Shown: positions 1,317 to 63,933 of the stretch, piece after piece
Layout of the letters: the number at the start of each line of letters is the position of its first letter
How positions within the stretch are numbered: position 1 is the stretch's first letter
DNA from: Candidatus Parcubacteria bacterium
Lineage (GTDB): Bacteria; Patescibacteriota; Patescibacteriia; Patescibacteriales; UBA12075
DNA length: 64,000 nt
Direction of reading: 5' to 3'
Assembly (NCBI GenBank): GCA_002869165.1
Contig: PKTK01000001.1
Coordinates: 510,005-574,004 of the forward strand
Translations under genes and position numbers: made by a program
Notes under the pieces: model-generated
What the model was told of the DNA's origin: nothing
Databases searched by the model: none
Seen by the model: the letters and a program-made list of their open reading frames with translations, nothing else

Positions 1317-2603
1317 TTACCTACCCCGCCACTGCTTATCCTGTCTAACTAATAATTCTTCAGCTCTTAATGGTTCGGCCATTAGTTCTAGAACTATTTT
1401 TTCCATTCTCATTCCTTGTGAACCTTTAACCAGCATAAGATCATTTTGCTTAATCCTATTTTGCAAGAATTTCCCAGCCTCTTCAGATTTATCAAAAGCA
1501 AATACATCCTCTTCTCTCATGCCATTCTCTTTGGCGCTTCTAGCTATATCCTTTGCCCTTTCACCAACTACTACCAATTTATCAATCTTGCTTTTAGCAA
1601 CGTACTCACCAACTTGCCTATGACTATCAACACTAACAGGACCTAGTTCAAGCATATCTCCAAGCACTGCATACTTTTTTGCTCCTTCATCTATTTTGGC
1701 AATTTTCAATGCGCTAACTGCCAACAAAGCTGATTTTGGCTCAGAATTATAAGTATCATCAATAATACTAGTGTGCTTGATACCTTCTACAACATTGAGT
1801 CTTCCCACAGGAGATTTGTAATCTCGCAGATATTCACATACCTTGTCCAAATTCACGTTATAAATAATACCCACACAAATTGCCGCCAAACTTGAATATA
1901 CTGCACCCAAACCTATCACATTGGGTAATTCCACTCTATGTCTAGCTCCTAGATATTTAAGCTCATAGCCAACACCTTTTAATTTATTTTCCTTGTCGTA
2001 GTTAAAATGGATATTTCTAGCGCTCACTACAGAATTTTCACTTAGTCCAAAAGAAATAACTCTAGCCTCTTATTTTTCTGCCATTTTCTTTGTCCCTTCA
2101 TCGTCAAAATTTATAATTGCATAACCTGCTTTTTCAATTGAAGAAATTAACTTACCTTTCTCAGCTTGTAGTGCTTCCCTGTTTTTAAAATGCTCGAGAT
2201 GAACCGAACCAACCAATGTAGCAACACCAATAATAGGTTTGGCGATTTCTGTTAAATAATCCATATCTCCTGGTTTATCTATCCCCATTTCCAGTATCAA
2301 TATTTCAGGATAATTTTTATCTTCTACTATCAAAAGCCAAAGAACTTTAAAACCGATAATAATCCAACCGAAAATATTTTTACCTGGAGAATAAGAGCCA
2401 ATTATTGTAAGTGGTAGACCAATTTCGTTATTATAATTTTTTTCTGACTGCCTAACGCGCTTCTCTTTTTTTAAAATACTATATATCGCCTCCTTAGTAC
2501 TAGTTTTACCAACCGAACCAGTAATAGCAATCACTGCTGGTTGATATTTTTTCAGTATCAGTTTAGCCCAATACCGAAGTTTTAATTCAATAAATTTTTT
2601 CAT
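1317..2603 (-). CDS. murF: UDP-N-acetylmuramoyl-tripeptide--D-alanyl-D-alanine ligase MurF; ORF-track pieces 2070-2603 and 1317-2027 lie in one frame across an in-frame TAA at 2070-2072
   Basis: Mur ligase P-loop ITGSVGKTSTKE in the N-terminal piece and the Mur ligase C-terminal domain (DDTYNSEPKSALLAV..., VLGDMLELG) in the other. The junction reads ...KKMAEK*EARVISFGLSENSVVSARNIHF. Confidence 0.8.
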
Positions 2604-19719: not shown

Positions 19720-20679
19720 TTATTTCACAAAATTATTGATCTTATTCTTGAGCATCCAAGAAATAACTTTAGTCTTGTGCTTTTTAATAGCTGGTCTAGC
19801 CGTACAGATCATCCAAGAATCTTTAAACTCGTGATTTTTTTGCATCAGGTCTTCAAGCTTGGTACTGTTAATATTGCCCAAAAGCTCACTTGACACATCA
19901 TTGGCAAAAATATTTCCTTGTGGATCAATGAAAAAATTTGCTTTTCCAGAATAGTCCGGCAATAGTCTTTGACCTGTTTTTAGGTAATGTTTCATGCCAT
20001 GAGCAAAATATGCTCTTGCCCATCTTTTGATTTTCCAACTTGATAGCTCTTGTTTTATCAACCAATCAAGCTCATCAATCATTTTAGCTTTATTATCCAA
20101 AGAATTATCAGCCTTAAAAAAATTATCACTTGAGTGAGTAACCGCTAGACTCATTTCCATATCTAATCTATTAGCCACATCATAGACTCTTTTCAGTTCA
20201 TGAGTATTATAATCCCCCATAGTAAAACCAATACGAAGATTATTCATTCCTGCTTTTTTTAAATAAGCAATGGTCTCTAGTATTCGTTCAAAGCCTCCTG
20301 GAATATTTCTAACATCATTATGTCCTTCACCAATTCCATCCAAAGAAATGGCTATACCGATATTTGGCTTTATCTTCATAATCTCTTTGGTTTTTTCAAG
20401 TATTAAATCACTTGCAAAACCATTGCTAGAAATAATTATATTTGCCTTGGGTAAATGATCAACAATAGCCTTAATCATATCAACCAAATCTTTACGCAAA
20501 AATGGCTCACCACCACTTATATTGATGCTTTTTAAATTCCTAGGTAACTTTTTAATATCTTCCAAACTAAACTCATTTTCATGGTTTTTTATCTGCCAGA
20601 TATTACACATTCTGCATCTTGAATTACAGCGATAGGTCACTGCTAGTACTATTTCATCAATTTTATTTGTTATTTTCAT
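19720..20679 (-). CDS. radical SAM protein
   Basis: CxxxCxxC motif (YRCNSRCRMCNIW) and GGEPFLR; embedded in the glycan cluster. Confidence 0.75.
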   Translation of the reverse strand: MKITNKIDEIVLAVTYRCNSRCRMCNIWQIKNHENEFSLEDIKKLPRNLKSINISGGEPFLRKDLVDMIKAIVDHLPKANIIISSNGFASDLILEKTKEIMKIKPNIGIAISLDGIGEGHNDVRNIPGGFERILETIAYLKKAGMNNLRIGFTMGDYNTHELKRVYDVANRLDMEMSLAVTHSSDNFFKADNSLDNKAKMIDELDWLIKQELSSWKIKRWARAYFAHGMKHYLKTGQRLLPDYSGKANFFIDPQGNIFANDVSSELLGNINSTKLEDLMQKNHEFKDSWMICTARPAIKKHKTKVISWMLKNKINNFVK

Positions 20680-29348: not shown

Positions 29349-29720
29349 TTATAAACTCTTTTTATTTTGATAATCTTTAATAGCTGAATGCAAAGCATCC
29401 ACTCCAAGCATTGAGCAGTGAATCTTTGGTGCTGGTAATCCCCCCAAGTCATTAACAATGTCATCTTTATTCATTGCAAGCGCCTCTTCTAGAGTCTTGC
29501 CCTTAGCAAGCTCAGTTGCGGCCGAGGAAACAGCAATTGCAGCAGCACAACCCAAAGTCTCGAATTTTATATCTTCAATTCGATTATCTTTAATGCGCAA
29601 ATAAATTTTCATCACATCTCCGCAAGTTGGATTTCCTTCTTGTCCCACAGCATCAGGATTGTCCATACTTCCCTGATTGCGCGGATTACGAAAATGTTCC
29701 ATTACTTTTTCACTGTACAT
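29349..29720 (-). CDS. iscU: Fe-S cluster assembly scaffold IscU/NifU-N
   Basis: Start at MYSEKVMEHFRNPRN. Motifs GNPTCGDVMKIYL, LGCAAAIA, PAPKIHCS. The first 6 codons in the ORF track come from a heptamer array. Confidence 0.85.
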   Translation of the reverse strand: MYSEKVMEHFRNPRNQGSMDNPDAVGQEGNPTCGDVMKIYLRIKDNRIEDIKFETLGCAAAIAVSSAATELAKGKTLEEALAMNKDDIVNDLGGLPAPKIHCSMLGVDALHSAIKDYQNKKSL

Positions 29721-29728
29721 ATTTAAAT

Positions 29729-29800
29729 CACATAACACATATCACACATCACATAGCAATCAACCAATAATGTTATGTGCTATGTCTTATGTGATATGTG
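29729..29800. repeat. two inverted heptamer arrays (CACATAA-like x4 / TGNTATG x4) forming a hairpin
   Basis: cacataa cacatat cacacat cacatag ... tgttatg tgctatg tcttatg tgatatg. Confidence 0.75.
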
Positions 29801-30568: not shown

Positions 30569-30979
30569 TTATTTTATCAAATCAGATAGATTGATTTTGG
30601 ATAGAGTTGAAACAACCGCATCCTGAACCTTGATCAAAACCTTTGGCACTTCACAATACTTACCAGCCCTACACTTAACTTCACCATGTTTATGAATGCA
30701 CTTAAAGGGGCTAACCTGTCCTTCAAGTGCTTCCACAATTTCCAAAGCAGTTATATTTCTCGCGCATCTACTGAGTGTGTAGCCTCCAGAAGCACCAACT
30801 TCTGCTTTTACCAAACCTGCCTTTTTTAAACTAGAAAATATTCGTTCTAAATAAGACAAAGAAATATTCTGCTCCTTGGCGATGGTAGCCAGTGACAAAC
30901 TTCCTTTTCTATAAGTTCTAGCTAAACTAGTCATTGCCCGAATTCCATAGGTTGTCTTGGTTGAAAATTTCATATTCAA
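30569..30979 (-). CDS. Rrf2-family (IscR-like) transcriptional regulator
   Basis: MKFSTKTTYGIRAMTSLA...LSYLERIFSSLKKAGLV wHTH, plus three Cys (CIHKHGEVKCRAGKYC). It heads the Fe-S operon. Confidence 0.8.
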   Translation of the reverse strand: MNMKFSTKTTYGIRAMTSLARTYRKGSLSLATIAKEQNISLSYLERIFSSLKKAGLVKAEVGASGGYTLSRCARNITALEIVEALEGQVSPFKCIHKHGEVKCRAGKYCEVPKVLIKVQDAVVSTLSKINLSDLIK

Positions 30980-33537: not shown

Positions 33538-33606
33538 TAAATTGCTATATTATTCAATTGTTAAATTGTTAAAAAACATATAAATTTTAACAAGCACTCA
33601 ACATCT

Positions 33607-33686
33607 TGTCATTTCGACTGAAAGGAGAAATCCCTTATACGTAAATATTTACGGCGAAGAGATCTCTCACTTCGTTCGAGATGACA
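33607..33686. repeat. MITE-like TGTCAT...ATGACA element (80 bp)
   Basis: tgtcatttcgactgaaaggagaaatccc...gagatctctcacttcgttcgagatgaca. Confidence 0.75.
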
Positions 33687-33732
33687 AGTAATTCAAATAC
33701 CACTGTTCTTAAAAATAAATGAGGTAATAATT

Positions 33733-33906
33733 ATGAGTAATAATCTATTAACAGCAACTGTTATCTCGAGAAAAAGACTAAAAAGAAAACTTTCTCAAAA
33801 CACCAAATTTTCAATTGCAATAAAGTCTTTGTTTAAAAGACATGATTATGCAATCGAAGCTGGCAAAATATTTACCAAGCTTGATAAAACAAAATTTGGA
33901 AAATAA
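33733..33906 (+). CDS. possible small basic protein (57 aa)
   Basis: SD gaggtaataattATG; MSNNLLTATVISRKRLKRKLSQ...; below the ORF-track cutoff. Confidence 0.3.
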   Translation: MSNNLLTATVISRKRLKRKLSQNTKFSIAIKSLFKRHDYAIEAGKIFTKLDKTKFGK

Positions 33907-33950
33907 CTTCAATGTTCTAAAAATCAATCAAACAGATAAGCGGGAGAGAA

Positions 33951-34106
33951 ATGAAAAATAAGGAGAGGGAGAGATTTGTTAAGGAAAGGAACAAACTGCG
34001 CGATGATTTGATTAAAATGATAAGAATAATGCAAAACATCGACGCAAAAACAAAAAAAGGGATTAAAAATGGTCAACAAATCTCTAGCAAGAAAATTCAA
34101 ACTTAA
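33951..34106 (+). CDS. possible small basic protein (51 aa)
   Basis: SD-like gggagagaaATG; MKNKERERFVKERNKLRDDLIKMIRIM... Confidence 0.25.
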   Translation: MKNKERERFVKERNKLRDDLIKMIRIMQNIDAKTKKGIKNGQQISSKKIQT

Positions 34107-34245
34107 AGGTAATAGGAATAAAACTAGCGAGGGTGCTAAAGATTTTATTTCACTGCTAACTAGACTCAATAAAATTATTACCAATTCTGGTAAGAATAGT
34201 GTAGATGATTTAAGTCAAAGTAATTTTCGAATAAAAAGGAGCTAA
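34069..34245 (+). CDS. possible small basic protein (58 aa), overlapping the previous ORF out of frame
   Basis: MVNKSLARKFKLKGNRNKTSEG...; ends inside the hairpin ggagctaaacaa/ttgtttagctcc (34238-34262). Confidence 0.25.
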   Translation: MVNKSLARKFKLKGNRNKTSEGAKDFISLLTRLNKIITNSGKNSVDDLSQSNFRIKRS

Positions 34246-34356
34246 ACAATTTGTTTAGCTCCATTATTAACACAACATAAGTTAATGGCATAAAGTTTAT
34301 AAAGGTTATTACATAATAACGCTTCTCTTTACAAACTTTTCACTTTTAACTTAAAA

Positions 34357-34398
34357 ACCTAAAAGCTAATAGCTAAAAGCTAGAAGCTAGAAGCTAAA
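34357..34398. repeat. heptamer micro-array (AGCTARA x6) ending 6 nt before the rplK ATG
   Basis: acctaaa agctaat agctaaa agctaga agctaga agctaaa. Confidence 0.85.
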
Positions 34399-34404
34399 AA
34401 ATAT

Positions 34405-34830
34405 ATGGCTAAAAAAGTAATGACAATCGTCAAGTTGCAAATCCCAGCTGGCCAAGCTAATCCAGCTCCTCCAGTAGGACCTGCACTTGGACAACACGGG
34501 CTACAAATTCAAGATTTTTGTACTAAATTCAATGACGCGACCAGAGATAGAATGGGAGATATTGTTCCTGTTGAAATAACAGTTTATGAAGACAGAACTT
34601 TCGACTTTATCACAAAAACCCCACCAGCTTCAGCATTGCTAAAAAAACATTTGAAGCTAAAAAAGGGTTCACAAAAACCTTTAACTGATAAAGTAGCAAG
34701 TATCACCCAAAAAGAGCTAGAAGAAATAGCTGCAATCAAATTACCTGACCTAAATACAAACGATGTTAAACAGGCAGCGAAAATTATTGCAGGAACTGCT
34801 AGACAAATGGGTGTTGAAATTAAAGACTAA
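34405..34830 (+). CDS. rplK: 50S ribosomal protein L11
   Basis: 141 aa; [24 protein letters not shown]... is the canonical L11 signature. Confidence 0.95.
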
Positions 34831-34868
34831 AACCTTTAAATTGTTTATTTTACAACTCCGGAGGGAAT

Positions 34869-35099
34869 ATGAGTTTTAGGATTACAAATAAGAAAAAACT
34901 AGATCTAGAAATAGATCTGTATCAAAAAATCTTAACTCTTCTACTATTCATAGCTTGGGCAGTAATGGAAACTTATAATTTGCTAACCTGCAAAAATGCA
35001 CTTATTTCCTTTCTTATCTATATTTTGCTGTGTGTATGCCAAGGCATTTATATAGAATATCAAAAAAGAAAAGGAAATCTTATTGTAAAAAACGACTAA
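34869..35099 (+). CDS. small membrane protein (76 aa) inserted between rplK and rplA
   Basis: SD ggagggaatATG, two hydrophobic helices, and a hairpin aaggcaag/cttgcctt at 35107-35126. Confidence 0.4.
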   Translation: MSFRITNKKKLDLEIDLYQKILTLLLFIAWAVMETYNLLTCKNALISFLIYILLCVCQGIYIEYQKRKGNLIVKND

Positions 35100-35159
35100 A
35101 AACACTAAGGCAAGAATACTTGCCTTTTAAATCAATTACCAAATTGAAATATAAAATCT

Positions 35160-35195
35160 AGTAACGTACCATGGTACGTTACTTGGTACGTTACT
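35160..35195. repeat. 24-bp perfect palindrome plus an extra direct half-site
   Basis: agtaacgtacca|tggtacgttact followed by a second tggtacgttact. Confidence 0.85.
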
Positions 35196-35225
35196 AAAAA
35201 TTAACTGGTGGGAGGACTCCTCTTT

Positions 35226-35323
35226 TGCCATTCCTGGCGACCGAAGGGAGGGAAAGGAATCTCGTGAAGATTAATCTTGATAAGATTCCTTTCCCTTACA
35301 CTTCGTTCCGACTGGAAATGACA
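35226..35323. repeat. MITE-like element (TGCCATTCC...GGAAATGACA, 98 bp)
   Basis: Internal inverted repeat gggaaaggaatc/gattcctttccc; sits 34 nt upstream of the rplA ATG. Confidence 0.65.
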
Positions 35324-35356
35324 AAAAGATGATCCGCTTTACCACTAAAAAAACAC

Positions 35357-36040
35357 ATGACAGAAGAAAAAAAGACAAAAAACAAGGTATAATTTGACAG
35401 ATTCAAATCATATTCTATCGAAGAAGCTATTATACTAGCAAAAGAATTAGACAAAGCAAAATTTGATGCTTCTGTTGAACTTCATTTCAAACTAGGAATC
35501 GATCCTAGAAAAGGAGACCAACAAATCAGAACTGCCCTATCACTTCCTCACGGAACTGGTAAATCAGTTAAAGTTGCTGCTTTTGTGTCTGATGAAAAAA
35601 TCAAAGAATGTAAAGACGCTGGTGCAGATTTCGTAGGAAATACTGACTTGATTGAAGAAATCAAAAAGACTGAAAAGACTGACTTCCAAGTAGCTGTAGC
35701 AGAACCTGCTATGATGCGTGAATTAGCTCAAATAGCTAAAATTCTTGGAACTCGTGGCCTAATGCCTAGCCCAAAGAACGAAACTGTGACTCCAAATCCA
35801 ACTCAAGCAATCGCTGAGCTCAAAAAAGGTAAAATCAGCTTCAAAAACGATGATGGTGGAAACATTCATGTATCTGTTGGAAAAGTAAGTTTTGATGAAG
35901 CAAAACTAAAAGAAAATATTGATGCCATGATTGACTGTATCAAAAAAGCCAAACCAGCCAAATCAAAAGGAATATATATCAGAAACATCTCTCTAAGTAC
36001 ATCCATGGGGCCAGGTATTAAGGTAATGATTCCGAAATAA
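35357..36040 (+). CDS. rplA: 50S ribosomal protein L1; ATG at 35357, in-frame TAA at 35390-35392 (codon 12); ORF-track piece 35585-36040 is only the C-terminal two thirds
   Basis: [80 protein letters not shown]... is continuous L1 sequence in the frame of 35585-36040. Confidence 0.85.
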
Positions 36041-41492: not shown

Positions 41493-42998
41493 ATGGAATA
41501 CGATGTAATTATCGGCTTGGAAATACATGCTGAACTCAAAACCAAATCAAAAATGTTTTGCGAATGTGATAACAATCCGGAGGGTAAAAAACCAAATGAA
41601 AATACCTGTCCAATTTGTCTTGGACATCCTGGTTGTTTGCCTATTCCAAACAAACAAGCAATAGAATGGACAGTTTTAACTGGTCTGGCACTACATTGTA
41701 AGGTTAATAAATTATCAAAATTTGATAGAAAAAATTACTTCTATCATGATCTACCAAAAGCATATCAGATTTCTCAGTATGACTTGCCTTTTGTGTATGA
41801 TGGCTATATGCAGGTTGATGATACACGGGTTGCTATTACTCGGATTCACCTAGAAGAAGATACTGGCAAAAACACTCATCCAGCTGGCAAGAACTATTCA
41901 TTGATTGATTTCAATAGATCATCAACTCCTCTCATGGAAATGGTAACTGAGCCAACTATAAAATCAGCAGAACAAGCTAAAAAATTCTGTCAACAATACC
42001 AACAAATCTTAAGATACTTGGATATCTCTAATGCTGATATGGAAAAAGGAGAAATGAGATGTGAGGCAAATATCTCAGTGCAAGAGAAAGGTAAATGGGA
42101 ATACTTGGGAAATTGTGAAATCAAGCCAATCGGAGATTATAAACTAAGTCCAAAAGTTGAAGTCAAAAACATCAACTCTTTTAAAGCCGTGGAAAAGGCT
42201 ATCAACTTCGAAATCAAAAGACAAATTGAAGCTCTAGAAGATGGTGAAAAGCTTGTACAGGAAACTCGTGGTTGGGACGAAAACAAAGCAGTAACAGTAA
42301 GCCAAAGAACCAAAGAAACTTCAGCTGACTATAGATACTTTCCTGAACCAGATATTCCTCCAATCAAATTTGAAGCTAGCGAAATTGAAGCTATCAAAGC
42401 CAAACTAACTGAAATGCCACCAGAGAAAAAAGTACGCTTCATAGAGCAATATGACTTTGACGCTGATACTGCTGAGATACTTGTAGCCGACAAGCAAATT
42501 GCTAACTTTGCCGAAAACACAATCTCTGAACTAAGAGCCTGGATTGATTCAAATGGTGATGACTGGGAAAGACAAAAGAAAAAACTTGCCAAAACAGCAT
42601 CCAACTGGCTAACTTCTGAACTATTTAAATATATCAAAGCAGATGGTATGGAAGTAATCAAGAAAATCACGCCAGAAAATTTTGCTGAACTAATCACGCT
42701 AATATATCAAGGCAAGATTAACTCAAGCGCTGGCCAGACAGTACTTGAAAAAATGGCCACTGACGGAGGAGATCCTAGCAATATCGTAGAAGAACTCGGC
42801 CTTGAGCAAATCGATGACGAAGCTGAACTGGAAAAAACCATTCAAAATATTCTAGACCAAAACGCTTCTCAAGTCGAAGAATACAAAAGCGGAAAAGAAA
42901 ACGTTATCCAATTCTTTGTTGGTCAAACCATGTCAGCCACGAAAGGAAAGGCTAACCCTAAAAAAGTAATAGAAATACTAAAAAAACTATTATCATAA
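41493..42998 (+). CDS. gatB: Asp/Glu-tRNA amidotransferase subunit B
   Basis: 501 aa; MEYDVIIGLEIHAELKTKSKMFC, CPICLGHPG, RIHLEEDTGK, and a C-terminal GatB/YqeY domain. Confidence 0.9.
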   Translation: MEYDVIIGLEIHAELKTKSKMFCECDNNPEGKKPNENTCPICLGHPGCLPIPNKQAIEWTVLTGLALHCKVNKLSKFDRKNYFYHDLPKAYQISQYDLPFVYDGYMQVDDTRVAITRIHLEEDTGKNTHPAGKNYSLIDFNRSSTPLMEMVTEPTIKSAEQAKKFCQQYQQILRYLDISNADMEKGEMRCEANISVQEKGKWEYLGNCEIKPIGDYKLSPKVEVKNINSFKAVEKAINFEIKRQIEALEDGEKLVQETRGWDENKAVTVSQRTKETSADYRYFPEPDIPPIKFEASEIEAIKAKLTEMPPEKKVRFIEQYDFDADTAEILVADKQIANFAENTISELRAWIDSNGDDWERQKKKLAKTASNWLTSELFKYIKADGMEVIKKITPENFAELITLIYQGKINSSAGQTVLEKMATDGGDPSNIVEELGLEQIDDEAELEKTIQNILDQNASQVEEYKSGKENVIQFFVGQTMSATKGKANPKKVIEILKKLLS

Positions 42999-43183
42999 AT
43001 CTCTTCGATCGATCCTTTAGGGTTAGCCACAAAAGGAAAGGCTAATCCTAAAAAAGTGATAGAAATACTAAAAAAACAAATGTCGTAAATCTCTTCGATC
43101 GATCCTTTAGGGTCAGCCACAAAAGGAAAGGCTAATCCTAAAAAAGTGATAGAAATACTAAAAAAACTAATGTCTTAAATCTC
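42935..43183. repeat. 90-bp tandem repeat (~2.75 copies) duplicating the last 20 codons plus stop of gatB and 27 nt of downstream sequence
   Basis: agccacgaaaggaaaggctaaccc... starts at 42935, 43025 and 43115. Each copy ends ...EILKK(LL/QM/LM)S-TAA. Confidence 0.9.
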
Positions 43184-47935: not shown

Positions 47936-48622
47936 TTAAACTCTTCTAGGCTTGCGTTGTCTGCAACCATTGTGTGGTTTAGGGGTTACATCTTGAATAG
48001 AAGTAACTACAAGTCCGTTATTATTTAGTGATCTAATTGCTTATTCTCTGCCTGTTCCCACTCCTTTTACAAATACACTCACTTCAGACAAACCAAACTC
48101 TTCCCTTGCCTTGCCTACAGCAATTCTAGTGATAATCTGAGCAGCATATGGAGTAGCCTTTTTAGGTCCTTTAAACCCGGCTATACCAGCTGAAGCCCAA
48201 GAAATAACACTGCCATTTTGATCAGTAAGGGTTACTATAGTATTATTATAAGTTGATTTAATAAAAGCTTTTCCCGTTGGAACTTTTCTGGCTACTTTTT
48301 TCTTTTTCTTTCTTACTTTGCTTTTTTTATTCTTTTGCTCGTTTTCGGTCTTTTTCTTTTCTAATTTCTTGATGATTTCTTCTGGCAAAGTTTCAAGTCC
48401 TGAAGAGTCTTTTTCGGTTTTTAGACTAACCTCATCTTTTGAATCGCGTGCAAGCGATTCATCCGCCGCACCGGAGGTGCTTTGGGCGGATTCGTTTTCT
48501 TTAGTATCTACATCAACATTAGCAGTTTTATCTGCCTTTTTTTCTACTTTGTCACCACCTTCGGTCTCAGTAGTTTTTGCGTCTTTTGTTGTTTTTTCTT
48601 CACTCATAGATATGAATATCAC
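47936..48622 (-). CDS. rpsK: 30S ribosomal protein S11 with a ~100-aa charged N-terminal extension; frame crosses an in-frame TAA at 48041-48043
   Basis: ORF-track piece 48041-48622 ends ...VKGVGTGRE. The same frame continues as [37 protein letters not shown] (47936), which is the conserved S11 C-terminus. Confidence 0.85.
48437..48496. repeat. GC-rich two-hairpin element, copy 2, inside the rpsK N-terminal extension
   Basis: ttttgaatcgcgtgcaagcgattcatccgccgcaccggaggtgctttgggcggattcg; about 76% identical to 8517-8580 with paired stem changes. Confidence 0.7.
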
Positions 48623-50233: not shown

Positions 50234-50275
50234 ATTCTTAATTCTTAATTCTTAATTCTTAATTCTTAATTCTTA
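50234..50275. repeat. heptamer array (ATTCTTA x6)
   Basis: Six perfect ATTCTTA units. Confidence 0.95.
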
Positions 50276-50285
50276 ATTACAGACA

Positions 50286-57054: not shown

Positions 57055-57285
57055 TTAAGTAAACACTTTTTCTTTTTTGTGCCCTTTTATAATCATGCAA
57101 AGATCGCCTTTTTTATCAACTAATAAAGTCATCCGAACAGGATAAAATCCTGTTTTATTTTCATTAGCCTCTTTTGTAACAAAAACTTTCTCAACGACCT
57201 CCGCTTCATTTTTCTTTAAGCCTGATATTTTTATAGCGACTTCTTTTTCTGTTTTTATTTCTTTCACAATCTTATCAAGCAACAT
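57055..57285 (-). CDS. small hypothetical protein (76 aa), in frame with the upstream ORF
   Basis: No SD; the ATG is 6 nt after the TAA of 57292-57531 in the same frame. Confidence 0.45.
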   Translation of the reverse strand: MLLDKIVKEIKTEKEVAIKISGLKKNEAEVVEKVFVTKEANENKTGFYPVRMTLLVDKKGDLCMIIKGHKKEKVFT

Positions 57286-57291
57286 CTTAAC

Positions 57292-57531
57292 TTAGCTTTC
57301 GTTTTCTCTTAAATCATACCAACTCTTAAATGCTCCATTTAAAAAAATTTCATTCTGTAACTCCAATTGAATACTTGGATGACGGCTAAAGATTGATACT
57401 TGTGAATAATCACCCATATTCTTATAAAATACACTATAGTCGGTTCGTTTTAGATCAATAGACCCCAATGAAGCTTTAAAAAATCCTAATTCCTTATTTG
57501 GAACATTCAATATAATAGCTTCATTTTCCAT
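57292..57531 (-). CDS. small hypothetical protein (79 aa)
   Basis: SD aaggagggaaaaATG; promoter candidate at 57578-57606. Confidence 0.5.
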   Translation of the reverse strand: MENEAIILNVPNKELGFFKASLGSIDLKRTDYSVFYKNMGDYSQVSIFSRHPSIQLELQNEIFLNGAFKSWYDLRENES

Positions 57532-57713: not shown

Positions 57714-59732
57714 ATGGCTAAAAAAGAAGAAAAAAAAGTAATAAAGAAAAAATCAGACTACGGCGCTGAGGCGATTACAGTTTTGGAGGGACTGGATCCA
57801 GTAAGAAAAAGACCAGGTATGTACATTGGCTCAACAGCTAGCTCTGGACTACATCATTTAATCTGGGAAGTAGTAGATAACGGCTTTGATGAAGCTATGG
57901 CTGGACACGCTGATACTGTCACTATTACCCTACAAGAGGATGGCATGGTTCGAGTAGAGGATAATGGGCGTGGTATCCCAGTTGACAAACACAAAGTAAC
58001 TGGTGTATCTGCACTTGAAACAGTTTTAACCAAACTTCACGCTGGTGGTAAATTTGGTGGCGAAGGATCAGGCTACAAAGTATCTGGTGGTCTTCACGGT
58101 GTTGGTGTATCAGTAGTAAATGCTCTATCAAAACACTTAAAAGCCGAAGTACACCGAGATGGTAAAATCTGGACCCAGGAATACAAAATTGGCAAACCAA
58201 AAGGAAAAATCAAATCAGCTGGCACCACCAAAAAAACTGGAACTGTTATCACCTTTTTGCCAGATGACAGTATTTTTACTGAAACCGAATTCAAATGGGG
58301 CACCATTCTAGACCATCTAAGAAGACAAGCATATCTAACCAAGGGAGTAACTGTTAATATTCACGACCGCAGAAAAGAACATAGCCAAAAAGATTATTCA
58401 TTTTATTTCGAAGGTGGTGTTCTTTCTTACATCAAAAATTTAAACTTAAATAAAACTGTAAAAAACCCAACTATTTTCTATGTTGAAAAAGAAATTGAGA
58501 ACTCAAAGATTGAAATAGCACTCCAATACAACGATGAGTACAATGAAACTGTTCTACCTTTTGCCAATAATATCCCAAATCCAGAAGGTGGTACCCACCT
58601 AGTTGGCTTTAGAACTGCTCTAACAAGAACTCTCAATTCATATGCTAGAAATCAAAAGCTTCTCAAAGAAAAAGACGAAAACCTAGCCGGTGAAGATGTT
58701 CGAGAAGGCTTAACTGCAATTGTTTAAGTTAAGCTAACCGAACCACAATTTGAAGGGCAAACAAAAGGAAAACTGGGAAACGCTGAAGTAAAAACTCAAG
58801 TTGAACAAATATTCGGTGAATCTTTTGCAACGTTTTTAGAAGAACACCCCAAAGAAGCAGAAGCAATCATTGGTAAATGTATCGTAGCCTCTCAAGCTCG
58901 TATTGCTGCAAGAACTGCCAGAGCTTCTATTCTACGAAAAGGCGCTCTAGATGGTATTACTCTACCAGGTAAACTAGCTGACTGTTCTAGCCGAAAAGCC
59001 GAGGAGTCTGAAATATTTATCGTGGAGGGCGACTCCGCTGGAGGTTCTGCCAAACAAGGACGTGATAGAAAATTCCAGGCCATCCTACCCCTACGTGGTA
59101 AGATTCTAAACGTAGAAAGAGCTAGATTAGATAAAATGCTTGCCAATAACGAAATTAAAAATCTAGTAATTGCACTAGGTACAAACATCAATGATCAATT
59201 TGATATAGAAAAACTCAGATATCATAGAATCGTGATCATGACAGATGCTGATGTTGATGGTGCTCATATCAGAACCTTACTATTAACCCTTTTCTTTAGA
59301 CACTTTAATGAATTAGTGGCTGCTGGACATCTTTACATCGCCCAACCACCACTATATCAAGTCAAAAAAGGTGCCAAAGTAGAATACGCTTATTCTGAAG
59401 CTGAAAAAGAAAAAATTATTAAATCATTGGGTGGGCACGTAGATGAAGAAGTAAAAGAACTTGAAGAAGGTGAGGAAGAAAACGAAGAAGAAACAAAAAA
59501 GAAAGCCAACGCCAGAATCTCTATTCAGCGATATAAGGGTCTTGGTGAAATGAACCCTGAACAATTATGGGAGACAACTATGGATCCTGAACAACGTGTT
59601 ATGAGCCAAGTTACCATAGAAGATGCTGCTTATGCTGATAAAATATTTGATATGCTCATGGGTGGAGATGTTGCTCCAAGAAAACACTTCATTCAAACAC
59701 ATGCTAAGAAGGTTGAAAATCTTGATATATAA
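57714..59732 (+). CDS. gyrB: DNA gyrase subunit B; one frame throughout, with an in-frame TAA at 58725-58727 (ORF-track pieces 57714-58727 and 59022-59732)
   Basis: GHKL ATPase motifs ([23 protein letters not shown]), [12 protein letters not shown], Toprim [36 protein letters not shown], and C-terminus ...AKKVENLDI. Confidence 0.9.
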
Positions 59733-61272: not shown

Positions 61273-63522
61273 ATGAACTATAAATTTGCCCAATTCATTC
61301 AAACTCCAGGAAAAAAGGCTAAATCTTTTTCCGATGTTTTTGTAGCTCAACCAGATTCTCACAAAGAAGAATTGGCTGGTAAGCTTTTTGTGGTTCTGGA
61401 GATAAACAGTAAAGATACCAAGGGTTTAAAGATTATTAATTTTTTACTTGATTCAATTGTTCAAAATTTTTACCAAAATGAAAAGCTGATTTTGCGAGAA
61501 CGCTTATCTACTTTAAAAATTGAACATATTTTCGAAGCTAGTTTAGCTAAAACTAATAAACATTTTACAGACTTTCTAAAAAACGAAAGAATAAAGATCA
61601 ATGCTAGCGATCTAAACATTACTACCGGAGTAGTTTTTGAAAATGAAATTCATATCGCCAATATCGGCACCAACAAAGCTCTATTAATTATCCCCAATAC
61701 TAAACCAGAAGAGAATCAAGAAAGATTCAAATTAGTTGACATCTTCAAATCCTCAGGTCACGAAGAAGAAAAAATCGATAGAATATTTTCCAATGTCATA
61801 AGCGGTCATATTCCAGAGAAAGCTGCTTTGCTTATTTGCAACGAAACTCTACCAGAATATATTTCTAAGAATAAATTAAGTGAAATTATCTCTTCCTTGC
61901 CACCAATCGGTGCTACCGAACAAATAAAAAACATCACTAAAAACATAAATGCTTATGTTTCTTTTTTGGGCGTAATCATAAAAAGTACTGCCACTCCAAA
62001 AACTCAAGTTGAGGCACGAGAAAGGGTCAAAATAAATAGTAACGAATCTATCAACAAACTAAACACCACTGAAAGTGAGACCGAACAATTACTTACTCCA
62101 TCAGGCATGATAAACTTCAAAAAATGGCTAGGTGTGCTTAGTTTACCCTTTTCCTCCTTTTCTAATAACAAAGCGAAAAAATCAGCTCTAGGATTAAAAG
62201 ACAAAATATTAGTCAAAAGAATATCAACCAGTAAAAAAATATCAGGACTACTTTCGAATTTCTTTTCCAATTTATTTATTGCTTTTTCCAGAATTATTAG
62301 AAACATCAACCAAGCAAAAATATTTAAAACAATCTTTTCTCTTGCGGGACTTAAAATATTTTTTGGAAAAGTTCAAAACTTCTTTGCCAGGGGAAAATTA
62401 AATAAAAGAAAAATACTACTTGCTTTAAGTATAATTTTAATTGTTGTATTCATCTTTAATATAACTCGAACCAAAGAAAAAAATGAAAAAATCGTTGAAG
62501 AACAAAGCTATTCCGAATTAACTGAAATGATTGAAAAAAAACAAAACCAAGCTGAAGCTAGTTTATTATACTCAAATGACGAAGGAGCCAAAAAACTTTT
62601 TGATGAGATCAATTCTTTAATCGAAGAATTACCAACCGAAACCGAAGAACAACAAAGCCAATACAATGAATTTAAAGAAAAATTTAACGTTCAATTGGAA
62701 AAAATCAGACGGATCACTCGCCTAGATGATGCAACACTTATTGACAACCTTAACAATCTAAACTCCCGCGCCAATCCTCAAAACATAACCCTAATTGCCA
62801 GTAAAGGAAATCTATATATTTCTGATGCAACCAATAAGTCTTTTTACATTACTGACATCTTTGAAAAACAAAGTACAACTATAGCTGAACTTGATAAAGA
62901 GATTATTAGACTTGATTATCCTTTATTAATTCAAGAGGAAGAAAAAAATGAGATTATTTATTTTAATGCAGAAAACCTAATTTCATTAAGCGCTGAGGAA
63001 AAAACTACCGAAATATACTCAATCAATCTAGCCAGCTCCGATGTAGTTGATATGGATATATACAATTCTAACATATACCTCTTAAACCCTAGTGCTGGTC
63101 AAATATATAGACACCAAAGAACCGGCAATAACTTTGGCTCACCTACTCCGTGGATCAATGATGGCTCAAATATTGAAAACGCAATTAACCTTGCTATTGA
63201 CGGAAATATCTATATACTCTTCAGTGATGCCAGTATTAAACGATATCTAAGAGGATCTGAGGTTGATTTTGACCTTGAGCTTTGCGATCCACCTCTTGAG
63301 TCCCCTACTAAAATAAAGCTATCTCAGGAAGAAGACTTTCTTTATATTCTAGAACCAAAAAATCGTCGTATGTTAGTTTATAGTAAAGACGGGCAATTTC
63401 AAATGCAATACATGAGCGAAACCTTTGATGATCTAAAAGATTTTGTTGTTAATGAAGAAAACAAAAAACTATATTTCCTAAACGGAACACTAGTCTATCA
63501 AACTGAAGCCAGTCATTTTTGA
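61273..63522 (+). CDS. large hypothetical protein (749 aa) with a central TM segment and beta-rich C-terminus
   Basis: Long uninterrupted ORF with TM helix ILLALSIILIVVFIF near residue 385, followed by a terminator. Confidence 0.6.
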   Translation: MNYKFAQFIQTPGKKAKSFSDVFVAQPDSHKEELAGKLFVVLEINSKDTKGLKIINFLLDSIVQNFYQNEKLILRERLSTLKIEHIFEASLAKTNKHFTDFLKNERIKINASDLNITTGVVFENEIHIANIGTNKALLIIPNTKPEENQERFKLVDIFKSSGHEEEKIDRIFSNVISGHIPEKAALLICNETLPEYISKNKLSEIISSLPPIGATEQIKNITKNINAYVSFLGVIIKSTATPKTQVEARERVKINSNESINKLNTTESETEQLLTPSGMINFKKWLGVLSLPFSSFSNNKAKKSALGLKDKILVKRISTSKKISGLLSNFFSNLFIAFSRIIRNINQAKIFKTIFSLAGLKIFFGKVQNFFARGKLNKRKILLALSIILIVVFIFNITRTKEKNEKIVEEQSYSELTEMIEKKQNQAEASLLYSNDEGAKKLFDEINSLIEELPTETEEQQSQYNEFKEKFNVQLEKIRRITRLDDATLIDNLNNLNSRANPQNITLIASKGNLYISDATNKSFYITDIFEKQSTTIAELDKEIIRLDYPLLIQEEEKNEIIYFNAENLISLSAEEKTTEIYSINLASSDVVDMDIYNSNIYLLNPSAGQIYRHQRTGNNFGSPTPWINDGSNIENAINLAIDGNIYILFSDASIKRYLRGSEVDFDLELCDPPLESPTKIKLSQEEDFLYILEPKNRRMLVYSKDGQFQMQYMSETFDDLKDFVVNEENKKLYFLNGTLVYQTEASHF

Positions 63523-63597: not shown

Positions 63598-63933
63598 AAA
63601 AAACAATATACTCCACCAGTCTACTTTTGAAGACTCAGGGTCTTGAGCTTCTTTTTCAAAGATCAACAATGAAGCAAGTATTCTATTGTTTGTTGCTGGA
63701 GAGATTATAGCTACACCCATTGGTGTTTCTCGCATCAACGTCCAACCTTCTTCAAATAAATCACCCGGGGATACTACTTCTTCTGTCGCTAAATCTATAA
63801 AAGACTTACTTGCACCATGATCAGAATACTGAACAATTTTTGCTTTTTCATTTTTATTTCTTTAGATTGTGGTGATTTTTGTTTGCCAGAAACCAATATA
63901 ATTTTTACAGATTATTTTTCTATATTTAATCAT
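63595..63933 (-). CDS. hypothetical protein (112 codons) whose frame contains an in-frame TAA at 63862-63864
   Basis: The ATG (63931-63933) overlaps the stop of the upstream gene (ATGATTAA). Reads MIKYRKIICKNYIGFWQTKITTI*RNKNEKAKIVQYSDHGASKSFIDLATEEVV...WWSILFF. There is no start codon for 40 codons after the TAA. Confidence 0.4.

Follow-up and report, generated by a model that had tools for sequence, protein, structure and literature searches.

Does a member of the Patescibacteria read its DNA gyrase gene through an ochre codon, or does the deposited sequence hold a base that the organism lacks? The question is raised by gyrB in a 64,000-nucleotide stretch of a Candidatus Parcubacteria contig, here called the window, in which a TAA codon stands inside an otherwise complete reading frame. 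The first-pass annotation, made from the letters of the window, had left three options: sequence or consensus artefacts, real nonsense lesions, and partial or context-dependent decoding of TAA. Comparison with other assemblies of the same population leads us to conclude that the gyrB TAA and four similar stops are very probably G:C→T:A base errors in the deposited MAG consensus.

Internal stop codon of gyrB

The gene and its interrupting codon lie as follows.

57714–59732, plus strand: gyrB, 672 codons, one base substituted and otherwise intact (GyrB models and sister gene calls)
58725–58727, plus strand: gyrB codon 338 (S338*), TAA generated by C→A at 58726; TCA (Ser) in the sisters

The TAA is present in the gyrB frame as first described, and reading continues past it through the Toprim region to the final ENLDI and a terminal TAA. 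The ORF list likewise cuts gyrB into 57714–58727 and 59022–59732, the split that had been reported. When the stop is translated as X, residues 11–672 match the NCBIfam GyrB model at 974 bits. The expectation that codon 338 usually encodes Ser was borne out by 80 GyrB relatives, which are Falkowbacteria/Patescibacteria sequences of 71–80% identity, as Ser occurs in 77 and Asn in 3. None of the 80 has a stop at this position.

A naturally split gyrB, restarting at the GTG of 59022, was considered and rejected, since the sister sequences have one uninterrupted gene; the intervening 294 nt encode conserved GyrB sequence, which also contradicts a split. The truncated GyrB piece had no match in the protein collections looked up, possibly because the source record annotates gyrB as a pseudogene and hence holds no protein for it.

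Sister assemblies

Sister sequences were located by exact-protein look-up with a neighbouring 749-aa ORF, and further look-ups tiled the whole window. This ORF (61273–63522) has no Pfam family on record and is identical across all assemblies. Together, four public assemblies cover the entire window without indels, all from the same Falkowbacteria-like population of Patescibacteria.

JGI 3300007102: contig Ga0102541_1058941, 129 kb
ENA ERZ794999: contig NODE_4, 500,921 bp, coverage of 22.95 (from the contig name)
Logan: SRR5894289
ENA ERZ794998: coverage of 2.86

Ungapped identity to the window is ~99.94–99.96% for JGI, ERZ794999 and Logan, and 99.79% for the low-coverage ERZ794998 contig. ERZ794999 and Logan show 0 differences from each other across 31 kb, and ERZ794998 shows 20 differences from ERZ794999/Logan in 11.7 kb. 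The ERZ794998 contig (L014) diverges from every other assembly in three tight clusters of mixed substitutions (window 29524–29556, 29749–29756 and 30915–30956), suggestive of low-quality read ends or of a second strain. The sisters may come from one project, in which case they are not fully independent biological samples.

In the JGI, ERZ794999 and Logan contigs (L001, L002 and L003), gyrB is called intact with 672 aa. Base 58726, which is A in the window, is C in all three, making three of the three sisters that cover gyrB.

Other interrupted genes

At least four further interrupted genes had been claimed in the first-pass annotation. In-frame TAA codons were found in three of them, at 2070 in murF, 35390 in rplA and 48041 in rpsK. 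The fourth claim, an ORF at 63862, did not survive, as the same TAA occurs in the sister assemblies and no gene is interrupted there; the open stretch upstream of it has ~49 codons and lies off-frame over the 3′ end of a called gene in a different frame (63926–64486). One interrupted site had been missed, at 57292–57294 on the minus strand, where a 158-aa ORF is split. The four sites that accompany gyrB are listed here.

2070–2072, minus strand: murF S178*, gene 1317–2603, G→T at 2071 (plus strand); TCA (Ser) in the JGI sister; identified by the murF model
35390–35392, plus strand: rplA E12*, gene 35357–36040, G→T at 35390; GAA (Glu) in the sisters; identified by the L1 model
48041–48043, minus strand: rpsK S189*, gene 47936–48607, G→T at 48042 (plus strand); TCA (Ser) in the sisters; identified by the S11 model
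57292–57294, minus strand: S80* of the hypothetical 158-aa ORF, 57055–57531, G→T at 57293 (plus strand); TCA (Ser) in the sisters

The murF, rplA and rpsK proteins each align to their family model end to end, and all three genes are intact in sisters, with 428 aa for murF (contig L006), 227 aa for rplA (four sister contigs) and 223 aa for rpsK. That no frameshifts are involved was also correct, since the window has no indels relative to the sister contigs.

The comparison with sister genomes, proposed earlier as a check, thus returned sense codons at every real site, TCA in gyrB, murF, rpsK and the 158-aa ORF, and GAA in rplA. We read the stops as assembly errors because the other assemblies have ordinary Ser or Glu codons at these sites. 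Among the three original options, the artefact is supported by this result (four TCA and one GAA) and recoding is not. Judged by the sister sequences, gyrB of the organism itself is predicted to be intact, with codon 338 as TCA (Ser), and to follow the standard code.

Local sequence was also inspected at two of the sites. A perfect 9-bp inverted repeat (58709–58735; GCTTAACTG-N9-CAGTTAAGC) includes the gyrB site in the sister sequence, where this site forms the pair that closes the loop. At 58726 and again at 57293 (57286–57293), the mutated base is followed by the 8-mer CAGTTAAG. The common 8-mer and the gyrB inverted repeat were set aside as probable coincidence, with n = 2 sites only.

Substitution spectrum of the window

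A consensus of three sisters (JGI, ENA ERZ794999 and Logan) served as the reference for calling differences private to the window. There are 35, spanning 239 to 63856, of which 32 are G:C→T:A transversions. If 20% of all substitutions belonged to this class, 32 or more out of 35 would still have a probability of only 1.5 × 10^−19.

G:C→T:A: 239, 2071, 4699, 5295, 10515, 11624, 12626, 13788, 18305, 22588, 27415, 28025, 30467, 32334, 33144, 35390, 38403, 40338, 41746, 45157, 45218, 48042, 49758, 49957, 51665, 52079, 52100, 53191, 56766, 57293, 58726, 63856
Other: 2662 (A>C), 46166 (C>G), 48179 (A>G)

At 2662 the only sister coverage is the JGI contig, and the A>C there may be that contig's own C>A. 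As for the G:C→T:A changes, 31 of the 32 are missing from every sister assembly covering the site. The exception is C>A at 41746, which causes P85H in the conserved NYFYPDLPK stretch of GatB; it occurs in the window and JGI, not in ERZ794999 or Logan, and represents a real polymorphism or else an error stemming from data that the two have in common.

On the plus strand, 18 of the 32 read G>T and 14 read C>A, and no bias between sense and antisense strands was found (14 C vs 11 G). The sequence context is restricted. The changed C has a 5′ pyrimidine in 29 of the 32 cases, when the background is 54% (P = 8 × 10^−6), or equivalently a purine follows the changed G. In GG and GA steps, it is the 5′ G that oxidises most readily. 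In the C orientation, the contexts were TCA (9), TCT (6), CCA (6), CCG (3), CCT (3) and CCC (2), and the 3 CCG compare with 0.72 expected, an enrichment of about four-fold. By hand estimate from the positions, ~4 adjacent gaps are shorter than 200 bp vs ~3.5 expected, and orientation runs number 14 vs ~16.8 expected; both runs and gaps are uninformative.

Changes of this kind are not confined to the window. Private differences of the JGI contig relative to ENA/Logan lie at 13057 of L001 and at window positions 19750, 24046, 24867, 24869, 30402 and 41968, and 6 of the 7 are G↔T or C↔A. Outside the window, one JGI-private change interrupts a 186-aa ORF with a stop. The same error type is therefore seen in another public assembly of the population, and error load tracks assembly quality.

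Two protein variants could be followed in cluster look-ups. The window versions of AlaRS and ABC-F were found only as the NCBI MAG proteins PLX28137.1 and PLX28141.1, and the JGI, ENA and Logan assemblies supplied the sister versions.

Effects on genes

The expected consequences of the spectrum were obtained by reconstructing the ancestral window, changing each of its G to T or C to A, and classifying the outcomes with the gene calls of the sisters.

Nonsense: 5 among all 35 differences, 5 among the 32 G:C→T:A, 3.6 expected
Missense: 17 among all 35, 15 among the 32, 21.6 expected
Synonymous: 6 among all 35, 5 among the 32, 2.9 expected
Intergenic: 7 among all 35, 7 among the 32, 3.9 expected

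Across the four classes, the counts show no significant departure from random G:C→T:A change (chi-square P = 0.085). Nonsense makes up 11.2% of the possible G:C→T:A changes, with which 5 or more out of 32 has a probability of 0.28. A genome would not normally have five interrupted genes in 64 kb, yet this is what 32 G:C→T:A substitutions predict. There is no sign of a selection filter acting against nonsense in essential genes. Missense falls below expectation (15 vs 21.6) and synonymous and intergenic changes above it, the difference being not significant.

The first-pass annotation had stressed that the interrupting codon is always TAA. This holds for the five real sites, but it is not special, as TAA makes up 64% of the stops that G:C→T:A could create in the window and five out of five has a probability of 0.107. 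The window has a GC content of 34%, and GAA, TCA and TAC are common codons. Both the stop count and the TAA-only pattern arise because G:C→T:A change acts on AT-rich codon usage.

For eight proteins, the missense change lies in or touches a Pfam domain, and the window allele can be compared with the sister allele.

AlaRS: −7.3 bits
L17: −2.8 bits
DNA_alkylation: −1.8 bits
GatB: −1.7 bits
ThyA: −0.5 bits
NusG: −0.4 bits
YkuD protein: TSP3 repeat hit lost in the window allele
ABC-F: +1.4 bits

The window allele scores lower in 7 of the 8 (sign test P = 0.035), and therefore the window holds the derived, worse-fitting states.

Could the changes be real mutations that occurred in vivo? The lineage might lack or have lost 8-oxoG (GO: MutY/MutM) repair and so accumulate G:C→T:A, and the MAG could have caught a hypermutated, dying or relic-DNA sub-population, or rare real variants at thin coverage. 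The spectrum and context of 8-oxoG are identical whether the lesion forms in a cell or in a tube, the window, JGI and ENA ERZ794998 each have private G↔T or C↔A differences, and the slight, non-significant shortage of missense points in the same direction. On the other hand, no viable clone could carry five nonsense changes in 64 kb that include gyrB, murF, rpsK and rplA; nonsense is not depleted relative to random expectation, and the best-covered assemblies have none of the changes. We consider this account improbable. A bolder form of it, in which the MAG represents an extreme oxidative hypermutator or decaying lineage of GO-repair-deficient, ultra-small Patescibacteria, conceivably surviving by tolerance of ochre codons, is given a slimmer chance still.

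Genuine pseudogenes would also show internal stops, which are their usual mark, and the organism is a small-genome member of the Patescibacteria, so that gyrB and the other genes might be decaying in a reduced symbiont genome. This reading is hardly credible. Each of these single-copy, essential genes is exactly one base off its intact sister copy, with no indels and no further lesions, and one mutation type extends across the whole window.

Proposed decoding of TAA

If TAA were partly or context-dependently read as sense, by a suppressor tRNA or programmed readthrough, full-length proteins would be made from the interrupted genes. This would suit the facts that all five in-frame stops are TAA, that the host genes are conserved and otherwise intact without frameshifts, and that the sisters have Ser at four of the five sites. 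The count of stops and their TAA bias are, however, both expected by chance from the spectrum, and the stops have the same type and context as the 27 other G:C→T:A changes, which are missense, synonymous or intergenic. Near-identical assemblies carry ordinary sense codons at five of five sites, and the residues replaced are Ser four times and Glu once, giving TAA no single meaning. The absence of a stop from the GyrB site of all 80 relatives argues against decoding as well.

TAA is also in regular use for termination. The terminators of 77 called genes are TAA (54), TAG (13) and TGA (10), and gyrB itself ends with TAA. As to programmed readthrough, the stops are not conserved in relatives and occur in one assembly only. 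The window plus ~40 kb of flanking sister sequence (~100 kb, a small part of the genome) yielded no tRNA gene and showed neither prfA nor prfB, and an Rfam scan of the window gave no hit, hence no recoding-associated or other RNA element. Taken together, we regard TAA decoding as extremely unlikely.

Other features of the window

Several repeats were observed. A 90-bp tandem repeat at 42932–43183 (2.8 copies, 93% identity), also present in the sister contigs, duplicates the final codons of gatB, which ends at 42998, together with downstream sequence. Two heptamer repeats are intergenic, namely a perfect (ATTCTTA)x6.4 at 50234–50278, just 3′ of alaS, and (AAAAGCT)x6.6 at 34354–34399, immediately upstream of the rplK start at 34405. 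Because there are no indels, the copy number of the heptamer repeats is equal in all assemblies.

Within 34405–36040, rplK and rplA are separated by a 76-aa hydrophobic ORF (34869–35099, no Pfam hit) and ~257 nt, and rplJ-rplL lie elsewhere, past the window end (L001 13348–14333). The gap between nusG and rplK (33538–34404, ~870 nt) contains three tiny called ORFs of 51–58 aa with no Pfam match, and no Rfam hit. The product of rpsK (47936–48607, minus strand; 223 aa) has its S11 domain only at residues 102–222, ahead of which is an N-terminal extension of ~100 aa rich in K/E/D.

Discussion

We favor oxidised guanine as the origin of the errors. Once guanine is oxidised, 8-oxoG would pair with A on copying, producing G:C→T:A in coding and non-coding sequence alike. 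Where such a change landed on TCA or GAA, TAA would result, as would have happened five times in the window. Oxidative damage or miscalls may thus have been carried into a thinly covered or bottlenecked consensus, and the damage may date from the environment, from extraction or shearing, or from amplification. For 8-oxoG errors to reach the consensus, low depth, a strong library bottleneck or very-low-input amplification would be needed.

With the stops read as consensus errors, the biological outcome is neither a new genetic code nor an interrupted gyrase. The matter is one of data quality, as a public NCBI MAG would hold ~5.5 substitution errors per 10 kb, nearly all of them G:C→T:A. This rate is enough to break about 1 gene in 16 within the window, and if it holds over the 585-kb contig, dozens of false pseudogenes would result. 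In AT-rich genomes, G:C→T:A errors give mostly TAA and so mimic a codon-specific signal. Screens for recoding should therefore compare the substitution spectrum with sister assemblies first.

Known stop reassignments in bacteria are UGA to Trp (translation table 4) and UGA to Gly (table 25, in Gracilibacteria/SR1); we know of no bacterial reassignment of TAA. A truly reassigned codon no longer serves as a terminator and has one meaning, and relatives share its in-frame occurrences. The window resembles the UGA cases in having in-frame stops in conserved genes of a candidate-phyla-radiation bacterium. It differs in that TAA is the main terminator, the stops occur in one assembly only, and both Ser and Glu are replaced.

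Deficiency in GO repair (mutY/mutM) produces a G:C→T:A mutator spectrum. Such mutators and the window have both the base change and the underlying lesion in common. A living mutator lineage would be purged of nonsense in essential genes, but the window has nonsense at the random rate.

The remaining comparison is with OxoG library artefacts, in which 8-oxoG formed during DNA handling is copied as T, yielding C>A/G>T (Costello et al. 2013, PMC3616734). Their context preference is strongest at CCG>CAG (Costello et al. 2013, Nucleic Acids Res 41:e67, PMC3616734), and they normally stand at low allele fraction in deep human data (PMC3616734). In contrast to that low fraction, the window errors are fixed in the consensus, which would imply very low depth or a bottlenecked or amplified library, and TCA and TCT rather than CCG are the commonest contexts, largely owing to the AT-rich background. 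The likeness lies in the pattern itself: the changes are nearly exclusively C>A/G>T, the changed C follows a pyrimidine, especially C, with CCG enriched, gene function is irrelevant to where they fall, and they are absent from the organism's other assemblies.
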